This document shows positions 6,568 through 10,486 of a stretch of 25,733 bases of DNA, one piece after another. Source of the DNA: a virus (taxonomy: Duplodnaviria; Heunggongvirae; Uroviricota; Caudoviricetes); the IMG/VR virus record IMGVR_UViG_2585427772_000005, positions 1-25,733 of that record; one strand, 5' to 3'. The translations under genes and the position numbers were made by a program. Position 1 is the stretch's first letter; the number at the start of each line of letters is the position of its first letter. Under the pieces are notes generated by a model. That model was given only the letters and a program-made list of their open reading frames with translations. It had not been told where the DNA came from and ran no database searches.

Positions 6568-7029
6568 CTACTGGTTACGTTTCTTTAGTGCCAGCATGTT
6601 CTCGAAGGCTTCCTCGTAGAGCTTGTTTAGTCCACGTAGCTGGTTAAGGAGTTTGGCTTTTTCTGACGCAGGTAGAATCTCGAAGAGGTTAAGTAACTCT
6701 GCCTGTTCTTCATTGACCAGCCTCCATCCTTTGCCTGAAAAGTTATCATCATAAGTATCTGATGATCTTACATAATTCATTAAGTCTTTAAGGTCTTCTC
6801 GAATGTCCTCTGGTTTTACCTTTAACAGAGCCGCAAATTTTAGCGCAGCGTCGGTATTTACCGGTATCTTGCCGTTCAGATACTGGCTAACGGTGCCTTG
6901 AGATTCGAATCCCAACAACTCAGCCGCCAGCTCTTGAGTCAGCTTCAGCTCTTTTTTTCTTGCATTCCATGCGGCTTTTAAATTCTTGCTCGCTTCTGGA
7001 GTTGCAATCACTTCGCGTGTTTTTTTCAT
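6568..7029 (-). CDS. XRE-family HTH transcriptional repressor (CI/RacR-like prophage repressor, no S24 peptidase domain)
   Basis: 153-aa ORF with an N-terminal HTH (LTQELAAELLGFESQGTVSQYLNGK). It is transcribed divergently from a Cro-like gene across a 107-bp operator-bearing intergenic region. Confidence 0.75.
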   Translation of the reverse strand: MKKTREVIATPEASKNLKAAWNARKKELKLTQELAAELLGFESQGTVSQYLNGKIPVNTDAALKFAALLKVKPEDIREDLKDLMNYVRSSDTYDDNFSGKGWRLVNEEQAELLNLFEILPASEKAKLLNQLRGLNKLYEEAFENMLALKKRNQ

Positions 7030-7136
7030 ACATAGAGTTTATTTGTTTTACCAATATTATCAAAGATAGCCTGGCTATTGATCTTTAAAATTAGCGGGGC
7101 TAATATTTGCTCGAGGCATAACGTAGAAGGTTGGCT
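7030..7136. promoter_or_regulatory. Divergent immunity promoter/operator region between the repressor and the Cro-like gene
   Basis: AT-rich 107-bp spacer with inverted repeats (AAAGAT ... ATCTTT flanking AGCCTGGCT; AATATT palindromes) placed like OR/PR/PRM. Confidence 0.5.
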
Positions 7137-7412
7137 ATGAACTTAAGAGACTATTTAAAAGAGAAACATATCACCCAGCTACAGTTTGGGAAGCTAACGG
7201 GTTTATCTCAGGTGCATGTAAGTCGAGTGCTGGGGGGCTATGAAAGATTCAGCCCTGAAAAAGCATTACGTGTTGCTGAAGTAACGAATTTCGAGGTTAC
7301 ACCTCATGAACTCCGGCCTGATATTTACCCGAATCCAACCGACGGCTTACCTGTTGGATTCAAGGCTAACACACCAAATGCATCGGAGTTGATTCATGAA
7401 AATCAGGCATGA
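7137..7412 (+). CDS. Cro-like HTH protein (YdaS-type)
   Basis: ATG at 7137 with GAAGG 8 nt upstream; the track start at 7131 is a TTG. HTH pattern (QLQFGKLTGLSQVHVSRVL). It sits in the cro position. Confidence 0.7.
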   Translation: MNLRDYLKEKHITQLQFGKLTGLSQVHVSRVLGGYERFSPEKALRVAEVTNFEVTPHELRPDIYPNPTDGLPVGFKANTPNASELIHENQA

Positions 7413-7821
7413 GCACATCCGCATGGCGATGAATGCCTGGGCGCATCCGGACGGTGAAAAAGTTCCGGCAGCTGAAATAACCCGGGCTTATTTTGAGCTT
7501 GGTATGACGTTCCCGGAATTATATGACGACAGCCATCCGGAAGCCCTGGCTCGCAATACCCAGAAAATTTTCCGCTGGGTGGAGAAAGACACTCCTGATG
7601 CGGTTAAAAAAATTCAGGCGTTGTTACCAGCGATCGAAAAAGCAATGCCGCCTCTGCTGGTGGCCCGAATGCGCAGCCACAGTTCAGCTTATTTTCGGGA
7701 GCTGGTGGAGACGCGGGAACGACTGGTGAGAGACGCTGATGATTTTGTCGCAGTGGCGATCGCTGGTTTCAACCAGATGAATCGTGGTGGCCCGGCGGGA
7801 AATATTGTGGTTGTGCATTGA
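7396..7821 (+). CDS. YdaT-like protein (cII-position regulator or toxin-like protein of Rac-type prophages)
   Basis: 141-aa ORF overlapping the YdaS-like gene by 17 nt, with GGAG 7 nt upstream. The sequence (MKIRHEHIRMAMNAWAHPDGEKVPAAEITRAYFELGMTFPELYDD...) matches my recollection of Rac YdaT-family proteins. Confidence 0.7.
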   Translation: MKIRHEHIRMAMNAWAHPDGEKVPAAEITRAYFELGMTFPELYDDSHPEALARNTQKIFRWVEKDTPDAVKKIQALLPAIEKAMPPLLVARMRSHSSAYFRELVETRERLVRDADDFVAVAIAGFNQMNRGGPAGNIVVVH

Positions 7822-7892: not shown

Positions 7893-8933
7893 ATGGCTAA
7901 TGCCTGGCTCAGGTTATGGCATGACATGCCAAATGATCCTAAGTGGCGAACAATTTCCAGGGTGTCAGGACAGCCAATTGCAACAGTGATGGCGGTGTAT
8001 ATCCACCTTCTGGTGAGCGCGTCACGAAATGTCACGACATGTCACGGCGTGTCACTACGTGGTCACATTGATGTCACGACGGAAGATTTAGCAAGTGCGC
8101 TTGATGTGACGGAAGAAGTAATTGATTCAATTTTACAGGCAATGCAGGGGCGGGTACTTGATGGAGATTTAATCACCGGATGGGAAAAACGCCAGGTACT
8201 GAAAGAGGACAATGGCAACGTTTCACAAACCGCGAAATCCCCGGCAGAGCGCAAGAGAGCGCAGCGCGAGAGGGAAAAATTACGAAAACAGAATGAGGGG
8301 TGTCACGACGAGTCACGCATATGTCACGACATGTCACGACGAGTCACGACAGATAAAGATACAGATAAAGAATTAAACCCCACACATAACGCGCACGTGC
8401 GCGAGAGTGCTCCGACCAGTGAGTCGAGTGGTACGCCGTTGCAGGCAGCAGAACCTGCATCCCTGGATGGACTGAGCGAACCCATCGGGAAATTTCCGAT
8501 GGTCGATGACTGGCATCCGTCGCCGGATTTTCGACGACGGGCTGCGTTGTGGGGGATGGCTTTGCCGGAGCCGGAATTTACACCTGCTGAACTTGCCGCT
8601 TTCCGGGACTACTGGGCAGCGGAGGGGAAAGTTTTCACGCAGGTTCAGTGGGAGCAGAAATTCGCCCGTCACGTAAATCACGTCAGGGCGCAGGTTAAGC
8701 CAGTCAGCAAGGGGGTAAACCATGCAGCAGCACCAGGTGGCACCGCATCACGGGCAGTTCAGGAAATTCGGGCAGCACGTGAGCAGTGGGAACGTGAAAA
8801 CGGATTTATCAGCGACGGAAACGGTCTGGAAGCTGTGGGAACTCATGGGGGAGGTTTATTCGAACCGCTGGACCCAGAAGAACGGGGCCGCACCTTCGAA
8901 GCTCTGGATTGCACAGATTGGCGCGATGACTGA
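7893..8933 (+). CDS. Replication initiator (lambda O-like replisome organiser) with the origin embedded in its coding sequence
   Basis: N-terminus (MANAWLRLWHDMPNDPKWRTIS) resembles phage replisome-organiser N-domains. Two iteron clusters followed by an AT-rich block lie inside the ORF. The 3' end is uncertain because the last ~210 nt overlap the P-like gene in another frame. Confidence 0.7.
   Translation: MANAWLRLWHDMPNDPKWRTISRVSGQPIATVMAVYIHLLVSASRNVTTCHGVSLRGHIDVTTEDLASALDVTEEVIDSILQAMQGRVLDGDLITGWEKRQVLKEDNGNVSQTAKSPAERKRAQREREKLRKQNEGCHDESRICHDMSRRVTTDKDTDKELNPTHNAHVRESAPTSESSGTPLQAAEPASLDGLSEPIGKFPMVDDWHPSPDFRRRAALWGMALPEPEFTPAELAAFRDYWAAEGKVFTQVQWEQKFARHVNHVRAQVKPVSKGVNHAAAPGGTASRAVQEIRAAREQWERENGFISDGNGLEAVGTHGGGLFEPLDPEERGRTFEALDCTDWRDD
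8021..8082. repeat. Iteron cluster 1: six direct GTCAC(G) repeats at roughly 10-11 bp spacing
   Basis: Direct reading: GTCACGAAAT GTCACGACAT GTCACGGCGT GTCACTACGT G GTCACATTGAT GTCACGACGG. Confidence 0.75.
8302..8380. repeat. Iteron cluster 2 (five GTCACG repeats) followed by an AT-rich block; candidate origin of replication
   Basis: GTCACGACG A GTCACGCATAT GTCACGACAT GTCACGACGA GTCACGAC, then AGATAAAGATACAGATAAAGAATTAAA. The layout resembles the lambda ori inside gene O. Confidence 0.7.
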
Positions 8934-9387
8934 GCAGCAAATCCGACAGGTCTGCCGCCAGTGCATGGACCGCTGCCGGGCGGGTGAAACATGGCCTCCG
9001 GACCTGGCTGAGTTTGTGGCGCTGATTTCGGAGAGCGGAGCCAATCCATTCGGTCTGACGGTGGATGCTGTGATGGAGGAGTACCGCCGCTGGCGCAATG
9101 AGTCCTGGCGATATGACGGAAGTGATAAGTACCCGTGGCCTCAGCCTGTGCTGTATCACATTTGCCTTGAGATGCGTTCAAAGGGGATTGAGCGCCAGAT
9201 GACCGAAGGGGAATTAAAACGGCTTGCAGAACGGCAGCTGACGAAATGGGCAAAGCATGTTAGTAACGGCCTGAGCGTTCCGCCAGTCCGGCGACAACTG
9301 GCGGCACCCAAACGCCCGTCGGGGCCAACGCCAATTGAGTTGCTGAAACAGGAATATGAACGCCGGAAAGCGGCTGGGTTTGTCTGA
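8722..9387 (+). CDS. Replication protein P-like (helicase loader, lambda P family)
   Basis: 221-aa ORF with AAGGGGG 6 nt upstream of the ATG at 8722. Similarity to lambda P runs from near the N-terminus (WIAQIGAMTEQQIRQ ... PDLAEFVAL ... YPWPQPVLYHICLEMRSKG against lambda P WVLAFRENGITTMEQV ... PGQFVAW ... YPWKSNAHYWLV). Confidence 0.65.
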   Translation: MQQHQVAPHHGQFRKFGQHVSSGNVKTDLSATETVWKLWELMGEVYSNRWTQKNGAAPSKLWIAQIGAMTEQQIRQVCRQCMDRCRAGETWPPDLAEFVALISESGANPFGLTVDAVMEEYRRWRNESWRYDGSDKYPWPQPVLYHICLEMRSKGIERQMTEGELKRLAERQLTKWAKHVSNGLSVPPVRRQLAAPKRPSGPTPIELLKQEYERRKAAGFV

Positions 9388-9419: not shown

Positions 9420-10172
9420 ATGGAGACTGTTTTTGACGCACTGAAAGCGATGGGAAAAGCCACGTCGGTAGAGCTGGCTGCGCGACTTGATATCAGTCGT
9501 GAAGAAGTGCTGAACGAACTATGGGAACTGAAAAAGGCTGGTTTCGTTGATAAAAGCGCGTACACCTGGCGTGTGGCTGATAACAACGTTCAGCAGGAAC
9601 AGCCAGCGCAGGCAGAACTGCCGGAAGAAACCACCACAGCAACAGTAGCGAAAATCTCAGAGTGCGATTTAACCGCAACGATTGAACAACGCGGACCACA
9701 AACGGCGGATGAACTGGCTACGTTTTTCGGCATCACATCACGCAAAGTGGCTTCAACGCTGGCAATGGCAATCAGTAAAGGTCGTCTGATTCGCGTTAAT
9801 CAGAACGGTAAATTTCGTTACTGCATGCCGGGCGATAATTTACCAGCAGAGCCGAAAGCTGCATCGGTAGCGGAAACTGATGGTAAAGCCTTTCCTCAGC
9901 CAGCCGGTGTTGCGTTACCAGTACTGGAAGCTGCAACACAGGAAGATATTAAAACCGAAACTGTGGCGGACATTGTGCAGTCGTTGCCATCGTTTACTGA
10001 AACGCAAGCGGATAACCTGATTTTACCATCGCTGCATATAGCAAATCGTGAACTGCGTCGGGCGAAAAGTCATGTCCAGAAGTGGGAACGAGTCTGCACC
10101 GCGCTGCGGGAGCTGAACAAGCACCGGGATATTCTTCGGGATATTACCGCGACCGGAGAGCTGCAGCGGTGA
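9420..10172 (+). CDS. Prophage protein with an N-terminal winged-helix-like domain (DUF1627-like)
   Basis: 250-aa ORF with GGAGG 7 nt upstream. The N-terminus ([29 protein letters not shown]) looks like a winged-helix DNA-binding domain. Conserved hypothetical of E. coli lambdoid prophages, from memory. Confidence 0.6.
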
Positions 10173-10486
10173 GTGGCTGGAAGAAGTGGTACGAGGCTGA
10201 AATCATGATACTCCGGCAGTGTGCGGGAACGATGACGGTCGAAAGCATTGGGAGGCTGACCGGTCGTACAGGTGATGCTGTCAGAACGAAAGCGCGGGAA
10301 CTGGGTGTCAGCCTGATGTTACGGGGTGATTATCACCAGTCAACAAAATATCCGCAGAGTGATATTGAACTGGCGCGACAGCTGCATCAGCGTGGCGTAC
10401 CCAGGAGAGAAATCGCCAGAAAATTTGGAATGCCGTTGCGCACAGTGAATAACTACGTTTATTTCGACAGGAGAGTTCAGGAGTGA
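10169..10486 (+). CDS. Small HTH DNA-binding protein
   Basis: GTG start overlapping the upstream stop (GTGA); the track start at 10082 lies inside the upstream gene. C-terminal HTH pattern ([21 protein letters not shown]). Confidence 0.5.

Follow-up and report, generated by a model that had tools for sequence, protein, structure and literature searches.

Do two adjacent replication genes of a Rac-type prophage share more than two hundred nucleotides of coding sequence, and if so, which protein do these nucleotides serve? The question arises in the window (the whole stretch of DNA analysed, 25,733 nt), where an earlier note had described a 212-nt overlap between an initiator (O) frame open to 8933 and a loader (P) frame open from 8719, with AAGGGGG placed 6 nt before the ATG at 8722. 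All of this is confirmed from the open reading frames and the sequence; the P frame is shut by TAA at 8716-8718, and the last 70 initiator codons and the first 70 loader codons lie on the same DNA in two frames. Our comparative data indicate that this is probably a genuine, maintained same-strand dual-coding overlap, with O running to 8933, full-length P starting at 8722, and the constraint partitioned between the two. The features of the locus are as follows.

7893..8933, + strand: replication initiator gene, 346 aa from the ATG start (348 aa from GTG 7887; open reading frame list)
8029..8350, + strand: two 10-bp iteron clusters, (A/G)TGTCACGAC, with 10-bp spacing, at 8029-8080 and 8300-8350, within the initiator gene
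8709..8715, + strand: Shine-Dalgarno sequence AAGGGGG, inside initiator codons, 6 nt 5' of ATG 8722
8722..9387, + strand: lambda-P-family helicase loader gene, full-length, ATG start, 221 aa (open reading frame list)
8722-8933, + strand: O/P overlap, 212 nt, the P frame being O +1
8722..8826, + strand: overlap segment A, O frame, conserved tail helix motif (T)ASRAVQEIRAAREQWE
8722..8826, + strand: overlap segment A, P frame, residues 1-35, a variable, predicted-disordered leader equivalent to lambda P domain I
8827..8933, + strand: overlap segment B, P frame, start of the conserved domain II equivalent, W36-x-L-W39...RW..KNG..P...W62.AQIG
8827..8933, + strand: overlap segment B, O frame, Gly/acidic tail end GGGLFEPLDPEERG...LDCTDWRDD, then stop
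8845..8847, + strand: in-frame P ATG (M42), probably an internal Met
8926..8933, + strand: ATGACTGA, the P ATG M69 overlapping the initiator stop (TGA at 8931-8933)

The overlap is not peculiar to the window. Related loci were gathered through their resemblance to the P body, the overlap playing no part in the choice. All 30 intact ones, from about 13 enterobacterial genera, show an overlap, 149-242 nt long and with P in frame O+1; it is carried by Escherichia, Citrobacter, Enterobacter, Klebsiella, Salmonella, Phytobacter, Pluralibacter, Kluyvera, Pectobacterium, Scandinavium, Buttiauxella, Dryocola, and Samsonia, further overlaps being of 182 nt (L026) and 191 nt (L032). Both frames remain open with unchanged geometry in orthologues down to approximately 45%-50% protein identity, and the module, of which there are roughly 2,470 E. 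coli copies, is present in 1256 of 5426 complete E. coli genomes. Orthologues with the same uninterrupted overlap are what the earlier note had named as speaking against an artefact, and its suggestion of a genuine extensive overlap is borne out; the orthologue alignment contained no initiator with a stop near 8720. The locus is a well-supported new example of a known phenomenon, long overlapping genes. An earlier description of this overlap was not found in the literature, of which our search coverage was incomplete, and no ribosome-profiling or proteomic data for the locus were found in the literature searched.

Selection on the O frame is visible in its openness. O-frame stops are absent from the overlap, compared with 5.4% per codon over the rest of P, and when the P codons are reshuffled synonymously, the O frame survives in a median of no more than about 4.5% of the trials at a locus. 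Over 12 thinned lineages, less than 75% identical in the overlap, this gives a Fisher combined p = 1.5e-8, a value that is optimistic since the lineages share ancestry. Conversely, that the P leader frame is open is by itself unremarkable for these O sequences (probabilities of 0.4-1.0 per locus, Fisher test not significant), and it is not used as evidence for the start at 8722. The analysis of GC content by codon position proposed in the earlier note was run across the overlap and did not discriminate either way.

The initiator consists of an N-terminal origin-binding region, a DnaT DNA-binding domain (residues 203-269), and a C-terminal tail. The DnaT domain PF17948 scores 64.1 bits against a cut-off of 25 in a Pfam profile search; the NCBIfam DnaT model is matched at positions 80-166 with 97.4 bits against an equivalog cut-off of 201, and by these scores the initiator is not a DnaT equivalog. 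It also matches the PHROG replication-initiation families phrog_1408 and phrog_3729, and PGAP, which names it 'DnaT-like ssDNA-binding domain-containing protein', places the stop identically. The domain PF04492 (Phage_rep_O) is absent from the window initiator at E <= 0.01, and the identical scan detects it in L024 and L038. Thus the description of this gene as O-like holds for its role, as it has iterons within the gene, but not for its domain content, where DnaT stands in place of Phage_rep_O: by these profile searches the YdaU-like initiator is O-like in role only and no homologue of lambda O. The copies of the iteron at the two clusters comprise four exact matches, two with one mismatch, and four on the + strand with two mismatches; the window as a whole contains 37 matches, where 21.5 are expected and none of 100 shuffles reached 37. 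These intragenic iterons form a putative replication origin.

The 221-aa product of the P frame is, by its profile matches and predicted fold, a lambda-P-family helicase loader. PF06992 is found at residues 55-188 (60.3 bits against a cut-off of 26, E = 2.5e-16), and phrog_109, 'P-like helicase loader', aligns residues 19-220 to profile positions 22-235 of 236 (E = 5.9e-64); homologues of 212-226 aa span 95%-100% of the 221-aa form. In the family alignment conservation begins at approximately residues 32-36, after a variable leader of about 30 residues, and W39, W50, K53, N54, G55, P58, and W62 are invariant. The earlier note, which saw P similarity from near the N-terminus, is therefore broadly correct, the variable leader being the exception. 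An AF2 model of P, built from an alignment without lambda P, has a mean pLDDT of 69.6, with residues 1-29 disordered (pLDDT < 50) and helices at 32-54 and 60-66. In Foldseek its three best PDB matches are all chains of lambda P in 9oa1 (probability 1.0, E = 6e-5 to 3e-4, with 194-213 columns aligned), the first of them being full-length lambda P, 9oa1_Z, with 213 columns; the low TM scores (0.36) between the model and lambda P result from the flexible linkage of the domains. In lambda P, domain I (1-29) is a disordered lasso and domain II covers residues ~30-119 (PMC12661323). The model agrees with the lambda P fold and domain order, namely an N-terminal lasso, domain II, domain III, and a C-terminal lasso.

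Where P starts determines how long the overlap is. The start at 8722 is suggested by the Shine-Dalgarno sequence together with its ATG, by the lack of any other conserved start 5' of W36, and by collinearity with lambda P. The energy of pairing with the anti-Shine-Dalgarno sequence is -11.8 kcal/mol at 8722, and at the equivalent of M1 in 25 loci its median is -10.8 kcal/mol, in the top 1% of the background, and within the best 5% in 23 of them. At M42 the median over the same number of loci is -5.5 kcal/mol, and at M69 it is -2.3 kcal/mol, equal to the background. Folding of 8660-8780 gave no signal of RNA structure around the P ribosome-binding site (z = 0.19).

A start at the nearly invariant Met42 (ATG 8845), which would give a P of 180 aa and an 89-nt overlap and leave the Shine-Dalgarno sequence and ATG of 8722 unused, is unlikely. 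At least 90% of sequences have this methionine, PGAP calls a P of 180-181 aa in Salmonella, Klebsiella, Citrobacter, and Kluyvera, and phrog_33198 begins there, the Shine-Dalgarno energy being moderate. However, the conserved W36 and the invariant W39 lie upstream of it, in a helix predicted to begin at residue 32; the codon is CTG (Leu) in 2 of the 25 loci, those of Buttiauxella and Dryocola; the Shine-Dalgarno sequence at 8722 is far stronger and is kept in 23 of 25 loci; and the P leader has a counterpart of about 30 residues in domain I of lambda P. Even a start at M42 would leave a conserved 89-nt dual-coding overlap.

With P beginning at 8722, the substitution patterns suggest that the 5' half of the overlap is constrained mainly by the initiator frame and the 3' half mainly by P. 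In segment A, changes synonymous in O and nonsynonymous in P make up 49% of substitutions, compared with 29% expected (observed/expected 1.66), and changes nonsynonymous in both frames are depleted (observed/expected 0.44). The P-synonymous rate in this segment is 0.30, compared with 0.63 in the P body, and the amino-acid difference of the P leader (0.60-0.68) is close to that of a passenger frame (0.62-0.71); the O frame has here the conserved tail helix motif ASRAVQxIxxAxxxW. Translated from 8722, the leader starts with MQQHQVAPHH and contains FGQHVSSGNVK. In segment B, P-synonymous, O-nonsynonymous changes amount to 74% of substitutions, close to the 71% of the P body, and the amino-acid divergence of P residues 36-68 (0.33-0.39) is equal to that of the P body. 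The P-synonymous rate in segment B is 18% below the P body (8 of 11 pairs, p = 0.11). Selection appears to be weak on the O amino acids in segment B and on the P amino acids in segment A.

The distal part of the O tail needs separate consideration. The O-frame sequences in the overlap include AVQEIR, ENGFISDGNGLEAVGTHGGGLFEPLDPEER, and TFEALDCTDWR, and the terminus has a recurrent, loosely conserved D-x-x-D-(W/F/R)-x-D-(D/E). In segment B the amino acids of the O tail are only marginally better conserved than in a passenger frame, and this conservation is not relied on; the importance of this part is suggested mainly by stop avoidance and the loose terminal motif. We find it quite unlikely that only the segment A helix is needed and the last ~35 codons are tolerated read-through with no role of their own. 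Such a reading would agree with the almost passenger-like evolution of the O amino acids in segment B and with the shifts of the tail end, which comes some 20-25 residues early in L036 and later in L025, L027, and L029. Against it, O-frame stops are expected to be frequent given the P sequence, yet they are absent, and across the DnaT-type group the initiator stop is nearly fixed (209-215 nt of overlap). Moreover, the terminal motif resembles the ...TDWI... end of lambda O, for which a mutation that leaves 294 of 299 residues, Oam205, is a classical amber mutation (PMC6022878).

The shortest form of P is that of the current annotation. The PGAP model has P begin at ATG 8926, as a protein of 153 aa whose translation is coupled to the initiator stop via ATGACTGA; only 8 nt would then truly overlap, and the 204 nt of open P frame before this ATG would encode no protein in the P frame. 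Coupling through ATG-N-TGA junctions is common, the 153-aa P is annotated by RefSeq/PGAP in all E. coli genomes inspected and likewise in the Rac-SA53 record, and this form still covers most of phrog_109. Nevertheless, we regard such a start as very improbable, as residues 36-68, which it discards, are conserved like the P body with an identical substitution spectrum, correspond to lambda P domain II in the alignment, and form helices in the predicted structure; M69 itself is without a Shine-Dalgarno sequence and is replaced by a Leu codon (CTG or TTG) in 4 of 25 loci, and PGAP picks M42 in other genera. A minor truncated isoform from 8926 may exist beside the full-length P.

The RefSeq calls, of 153 aa in the E. 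coli records inspected and of 180 aa in other genera, hide the overlap and cut off conserved residues of the domain II equivalent; in lambda P the pentameric spiral of the loader is built by this domain. Studies of structure or function that start from the RefSeq P models would be made with a truncated protein. The truncation of P by the annotation, the dominance of different frames in the two halves of the overlap, and the lack of homology between the initiator and lambda O are points that the earlier note had missed.

It is hardly credible that the overlap stems from a frameshift introduced in sequencing or assembly, from a pseudogene initiator slipped out of frame at its 3' end, from the relic of an O-P fusion, or from programmed frameshifting that yields an O-P fusion protein: the phrog_15931 profile (482 positions) does join O-like and P-like sequence, and a few database proteins (P0108, P0082, P0147) look fused, but the identical architecture recurs in the 1256 complete E. 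coli genomes and about 13 genera, the fused examples are an indel-ridden long-read contig, a frameshifted copy, or internal deletions, and the sequence shows neither a slippery site nor an RNA structure that could stimulate frameshifting (z = 0.19). Of the alternatives raised in the earlier note, a frameshift in the initiator 3' end is refuted, the tail being conserved, always C-terminal, and held open in its frame under selection; an O-P fusion history finds no support, the apparent fusions (P0108, L033, P0082) being artefacts or defective copies.

Several candidates were rejected individually. P0108 (385 aa), considered as an in-frame O-P fusion, comes from an indel-ridden long-read assembly in which the initiator is broken across frames; P0082 and P0014 look like internal-deletion chimeras; and L033 is a frameshifted copy. 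The P gene of L034, with an 8-nt overlap, was considered as a natural non-overlapping comparator and dismissed, as it adjoins a PTS transporter gene in a prophage remnant; both L034 and L037 are degraded remnants.

A genuine overlap with full-length P would be expressed as follows. Ribosomes translating the initiator would run on in frame 0 to the TGA at 8931-8933, adding a tail of ~70 residues, ~277-346, after the DnaT domain, and other ribosomes would start independently at the internal AAGGGGG and ATG 8722 in the +1 frame and produce the 221-aa loader. In the first ~105 nt the amphipathic helix of the initiator tail would dominate, the P side being the disordered 'N-terminal lasso' leader; in the last ~107 nt the first helices of P domain II would dominate, the O side being a Gly/acidic/aromatic end kept free of stops.

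What the tail may do is suggested by its distribution. In an exhaustive representative search it was always C-terminal and attached to at least six types of initiator N-terminal domains; a homologue search using just the 77-aa tail was uninformative, yielding no more than partial fragments from E. coli. Initiators without a P partner, such as K-12 YdaU and that of phage Tritos, end in a different, DnaT-like tail, ...PD..IPPGFRG, and the Tritos initiator shares its N-terminal domain with the window initiator. Genetics suggested that the P-binding domain of lambda O lies in its COOH-terminal region, and the N-terminal part of P, when expressed, blocks complementation by O (PMC6022878). By analogy with this C-terminal domain of lambda O, we infer that the initiator tail would be a loader-specific adaptor. 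The interleaving of the tail with the beginning of P would make the two a single inherited cassette of tail and loader, recombining onto many origin-binding bodies. This offers a concrete, testable account of how loader specificity stays linked to the loader gene while origin-binding domains swap.

It is conceivable, though we put it forward only tentatively, that the 212 nt encode both sides of one interface, the O adaptor peptide and the P lasso with its first helices. If so, the specificity determinants of the two partners would lie on the same nucleotides, inseparable by recombination and forced to co-evolve, and the overlap would be a built-in linkage device, the tail and loader cassette being transplantable onto any origin-binding domain in mosaic phages. 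The frames can be separated in silico by single-nucleotide changes: T8723C (ATG to ACG) abolishes the start codon of P without altering the O protein (CAT to CAC); C8760T leaves the P protein unchanged and introduces a stop in O at codon 290 (numbered from ATG 7893); and G8898T, also silent in P, introduces an O stop at codon 336, with the loss of the 11 residues EALDCTDWRDD. A clean, deeply conserved overlap of 70 codons between well-understood partners, with a measurable partition of constraint and such separation mutations, may serve as a test bed for the evolution and translation of overlapping genes.

Of the known systems, lambda O-P is similar in having an iteron-bearing initiator gene directly 5' of a P-family loader gene on the same strand, in the four-domain layout of the loader, and in an initiator C-terminal part that is believed to be the binding site of the loader and accompanies it among mosaic phages. 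However, O and P overlap by 4 nt in lambda and by 4-17 nt in the lambda-type loci L038-L041, compared with 212 nt in the window, and the window initiator has a DnaT domain in place of Phage_rep_O and a tail about 45 residues longer than the lambda type.

The ydaS-ydaT-ydaU-ydaV-ydaW region of the K-12 Rac prophage has homologous flanks and the same order of repressor, ydaS, ydaT, initiator, loader, and the DUF1627 gene ydaW. In contrast to the window, its YdaU ends in ...PDSAIPPGFRG and is followed, after a 6-nt gap, by the DnaC/IstB-type ATPase YdaV, with no P-family loader, tail motif, or long overlap. Host DnaT shares with the initiator the DNA-binding domain PF17948, whereas the initiator has a phage origin-binding N-terminus, and the P-associated tail replaces the IPPGFRG C-terminus.

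Finally, the classical long same-strand overlaps are A/B/K and D/E of phiX174 and Rz/Rz1 of lambda (reviews PMC8227390, PMC6195259). There, as in the window, two frames are carried by one DNA, one tending to be constrained where the other is disordered or variable. Unlike them, the window pair is not nested, the 3' end of one gene lying over the 5' end of the next, and its products are not unrelated proteins but partners in a single pathway.

The window carries the control and replication region of a Rac-type lambdoid prophage, with the genes in the following order:

6568-7029, minus strand, DicA/RacR-like repressor
7131-7412, YdaS-like HTH gene
7396-7821, YdaT-like gene
7887/7893-8933, plus strand, initiator (GTG 7887, ATG 7893)
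8722-9387, plus strand, P-like gene (221 aa)
9420-10172, DUF1627/YdaW gene

Both reading frames described in the earlier note were found exactly so in the ORF listing. The initiator and P have 8722-8933 (212 nt) in common, the P frame being +1 relative to the initiator; it is closed by TAA at 8716-8718 and therefore opens at 8719, and the Shine-Dalgarno (SD) sequence AAGGGGG (8709-8715) lies 6 nt upstream of ATG 8722. The downstream ORF is a helicase loader of the lambda P family, matching PF06992 (60.3 bits, cut-off 26) and, with residues 19-220, positions 22-235 of the 236 in phrog_109 ('P-like helicase loader'). The upstream ORF, with matches to the replication-initiator families phrog_1408 and phrog_3729, is a phage replication initiator. 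Its residues 203-269 form a DnaT DNA-binding domain (PF17948, 64 bits), and a profile scan of the protein revealed no Phage_rep_O domain; the name 'O-like' therefore holds for its role, not for its domain. Elsewhere in the region, 17 nt of the same strand (7396-7412) belong to both the YdaS-like and the YdaT-like gene. A GTG-started ORF (10082-10486) shares 91 nt of the same strand with the DUF1627 gene (10082-10172), which is probably a longest-ORF artefact, since the PGAP start of the matching gene lies further downstream (282 nt in the RefSeq record L004).

Relatives of the P body (the part beyond the overlap) were sought in a single genome from each species, a scan that was blind to the overlap itself and returned 33 loci. 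The initiator ORF extends 149-242 nt into the P ORF in 23 of them, P being always in the +1 frame, and L026 and L032 add overlaps of 182 and 191 nt; the earlier suggestion of genuine extensive overlap is thus borne out in orthologous loci. Among the loci without a long overlap, L033 is frameshifted, L034 and L037 are degraded remnants, and L031 has no upstream initiator ORF. In the true lambda P subfamily (L038-L041), O ends with ...NTDWI... or ...EAWEDF and overlaps P by only 4-17 nt.

The statistical tests used 30 intact loci, among them the window and six close relatives from E. coli or phages. Stops in the O frame occur at 5.4% per codon over non-overlapping P and are absent from the overlap. 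When synonymous codons of P were resampled with each locus's own codon usage, the median share of trials that left the O frame open was 4.5% (range 0.5-16%), with Fisher's combined p = 1.5e-8 for 12 lineages whose overlaps share less than 75% identity, a value that is optimistic owing to shared ancestry. The effect is large, and codon choice in P evidently avoids stops in the initiator frame. When 1.84 billion representative proteins were searched exhaustively by HMMER for the 77-residue initiator tail, only 28 matches at E <= 1e-3 emerged; save a few low-complexity ones, these form the very C-terminal end of proteins about 317-360 aa long.

The extent of the overlap depends on where P starts. 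Full-length P homologues (212-226 aa, 95-100% query coverage) were found down to 49% identity, and their conserved core begins at about residue 32-36, not at Met69, with the pattern (T)AW-x-LW-E-x-M-G-E-I-Y-S-N-R-W-T-x-K-N-G-A-x-P-S-x-L-W-I-A-Q-I-G. Positions W39, W50, K53, N54, G55, P58, and W62 are invariant in the alignment, W62 being also present in lambda P. In 25 non-redundant loci, amino-acid divergence of residues 37-68 (0.33-0.39) equals that of the rest of P (0.30-0.40), and residues 1-36 are far more variable (0.60-0.68); the earlier placing of P-family similarity near the N-terminus is thus largely correct, the exception being a variable leader of about 30 residues. An AlphaFold2 model based on 24 homologues has residues 1-29 disordered (pLDDT ~33) and helices at 32-54, 60-66, 71-86, and onwards. 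Its top PDB matches are lambda P chains of the DnaB-lambda P complex 9oa1 (213 columns with the full-length chain Z, E = 6e-5, probability 1.0), and BLASTP aligns residues 86-193 with lambda P 94-202. In lambda P, residues 1-29 (domain I) are intrinsically disordered and termed the 'N-terminal lasso', the pentameric loader spiral is built by domain II (~30-119), and domains III and IV span 120-192 and 193-233 (PMC12661323). Taken together with these boundaries, the alignment and the model matches make the 221-aa ORF collinear with all of lambda P.

Start signals were compared in the same 25 loci. Upstream of the first ATG, the median SD-antiSD duplex energy is -10.8 kcal/mol, among the best 1% of all positions within the genes concerned, and in 23 of 25 loci the energy falls within the best 5%; medians are -5.5 at the Met42 position (ATG 8845) and -2.3, equal to background, at Met69 (ATG 8926). 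The Met42 codon is CTG in two loci, and the Met69 codon is CTG or TTG in four. The initiator codons spanning the SD and ATG specify varying amino acids (KGVNH-A, TGGNSH-V, TGGTEN-A, QGETGY-V, etc.), and despite this variation they keep a G-rich SD and xAT-G. Openness of the P leader frame was uninformative, as the +1 frame is usually open anyway given the initiator amino-acid sequence. On the basis of alignment, divergence, structure, and start signals, the P start certainly lies before residue 32, with ATG 8722 as the most probable site.

Databases conflict over this start. Of 5426 complete E. coli genomes, 1256 carry the module, which makes it very common, and in every E. coli record opened PGAP places the initiator stop as in the window and takes the ATG of ATGACTGA (window 8926) as the start of 'replication protein P', giving a 153-aa product and an overlap of only 8 nt; phage Rac-SA53 is annotated likewise, and PPompW phages have a 140-aa product. 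In Salmonella, Klebsiella, Citrobacter, and Kluyvera, PGAP gives 180-181 aa from the Met42 equivalent, and non-PGAP pipelines give 212-226 aa (RefSeq records L004-L007; proteins P0023-P0040). Start codons therefore vary by pipeline and genus, and RefSeq conceals the long overlap. A separate observation concerns PP818812.1, 'Actinobacillus phage vB_Apl-pPE4', which has an E. coli-type replication module (93% DNA identity), unexpected for its recorded Pasteurellaceae host Actinobacillus pleuropneumoniae; it may be an E. coli prophage contaminant or have a mis-assigned host.

Of the rival readings (ALTERNATIVES), the most serious is a start at Met42, used by PGAP in four genera; we consider it improbable, and even if it were true, an 89-nt conserved dual-coding overlap would remain. 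The PGAP start at 8926 in E. coli conflicts with the conservation, structure, and start-signal evidence: it strips conserved, structured residues from P, removing domain I and almost half of domain II. A minor truncated isoform may still arise from 8926. Folding gave no notable RNA structure near the P start (z = 0.19), and we see no reason to invoke programmed frameshifting. The O-P fusion history proposed earlier finds no support in database fusion proteins: P0108 comes from an error-prone long-read assembly full of indels (L043), and the others reflect internal deletions or the frameshifted copy L033 (2438-2689; Leclercia adecarboxylata NCTC13032). Owing to a 1-nt indel within the overlap, the P leader there runs on into the last part of the initiator tail, and the initiator frame runs into nonsense; this is either a natural inactivation or a sequencing error. 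The profile phrog_15931 (482 positions) is matched by both the initiator (1-347) and P (280-482), and so at least one of its members must be fused or frameshifted. A frameshift in the initiator 3' end was the remaining earlier suggestion; orthologues with the same overlap exclude both a sequencing frameshift and a pseudogene.

Within the genuine overlap, constraint is divided between the frames. Each difference in 16 near-neighbour sequence pairs was typed by its effect in both.

Substitution classes by segment (expected values in brackets)
Segment A (P 2-35; 8725-8826): P-nonsynonymous/O-synonymous 49% (29%); P-synonymous/O-nonsynonymous 29% (23%); nonsynonymous in both 21% (47%)
Segment B (P 36-68; 8827-8925): 7%; 74%; 16%
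P body: 7%; 71%; 21%

Segment A is thus constrained mainly by the initiator frame, with possibly some extra constraint from P, and the spectrum of segment B is indistinguishable from that of the P body. P-synonymous divergence, pooled from 11 independent pairs, rises from 0.30 in segment A through 0.51 in segment B to 0.63 in the P body. The alignments give a segment A tail motif, [ST]-A-S-R-A-V-Q-x-I-x-x-A-x-x-x-W-E, whose hydrophobic spacing suggests an amphipathic helix and which is still discernible in the most distant loci (ESDAVQRIRAERRRWE, ESAALRQVREARAEWE, KSRAMQKFLRATEERY). The segment B tail is rich in Gly/Asp/Glu; its pattern GG-x-(L/I)-(F/L)-E-(P/S)-(L/V)-D-x-E-E-(R/W) is largely a shadow of S-N-R-W-T-Q-K-N-G in P, and the terminus reads D-x-x-D-(W/F/R)-x-D-(D/E). 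Conservation in one frame thus coincides with variability or disorder in the other, as is typical of overlapping genes. A function for the last ~35 tail residues, the least secure part of this picture, is suggested by stop avoidance, by the nearly fixed stop in the DnaT-type group (209-215 nt of overlap), and by likeness to the end of lambda O, DLTNTDWIYGVDL; the classical amber mutation Oam205 leaves 294 of the 299 residues of O (PMC6022878).

Single-base changes that cleanly separate the genes were checked in silico: T8723C abolishes the start codon of P without changing the initiator protein, and C8760T and G8898T, both silent in P, cut the initiator at codons 290 (from ATG 7893) and 336. 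On the opposite strand, minus-strand ORFs 8373-8723, 8809-9159, and 8843-9253 (116-136 aa) lie antisense to the initiator end and the P gene, an equivalent of one being open in L005 too; no family match was found for any of the three, and GC-rich coding sequence is their likely source.

As to novelty (SIGNIFICANCE), both protein families are already known, as are long same-strand overlaps in phages, and full-length 221-aa P proteins are already in nr; no prior description of the initiator/P overlap was found in the searchable literature. The overlap is a well-supported example of a known phenomenon, obscured by RefSeq annotation. The data are also compatible with a more novel proposal, which we regard as doubtful: initiator and loader would have both sides of their interface encoded by the shared DNA.

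Two clusters of a 10-bp repeat, (A/G)TGTCACGAC, with 10-bp spacing lie within the initiator gene, one in the region coding for the N-terminal domain and the other in the linker preceding the DnaT domain (8029-8080 and 8300-8350). They encode the repeated peptides 'VT(T/R)(C/G)H / (C/E)HD(E/M)SRR' and are probably origin iterons, placed within the initiator gene as those of lambda are within O.

Initiators that differ in their origin-binding domain share the C-terminal tail described above, and in each the tail overlaps a P gene of the same kind:

the window's type
Phage_rep_O (L024, P0150)
HTH_36/DnaD_N (L025)
DUF1376 (L027, P0134)
'MARIRT(V/I)KPEFW' (P0137, P0149)
'MAGDWIKMRADL' (P0138)

Further N-terminal types beyond these six also bear it, and the middle regions before the tail differ as well (the DnaT domain, a lambda-O-like C-terminal region with ...NILCPSKLREKWDTL..., or YdaU-like ...ANGYQGLF...). 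Tail type tracks loader type, given the P-linked tail on one side and a DnaT-like tail in loci without P on the other, and from this we infer that the tail may serve the initiator as an adaptor specific to P; through the overlap, adaptor and loader would then form one unit, inseparable by recombination. Host DnaT has the same terminal motif (...IPPGFRG) as YdaU, and initiators ending with ...PD..IPPGFRG are followed either by no phage loader or by a DnaC-type loader, which suggests that C-terminal 'loader-adaptor' tails are interchangeable. In phage Tritos and its relatives (L044 2594-3664; L045), the initiator has the same N-terminal domain as that of the window (86-87% DNA identity) but ends with ...EPDTEIPPGFRG, a DnaT-like ...PD..IPPGFRG motif, with no P gene after it. 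YdaU of the K-12 Rac prophage (L042 2120-2977), with a DUF1376 N-terminus, ends with ...PDSAIPPGFRG and is followed by the DnaC/IstB-type YdaV.
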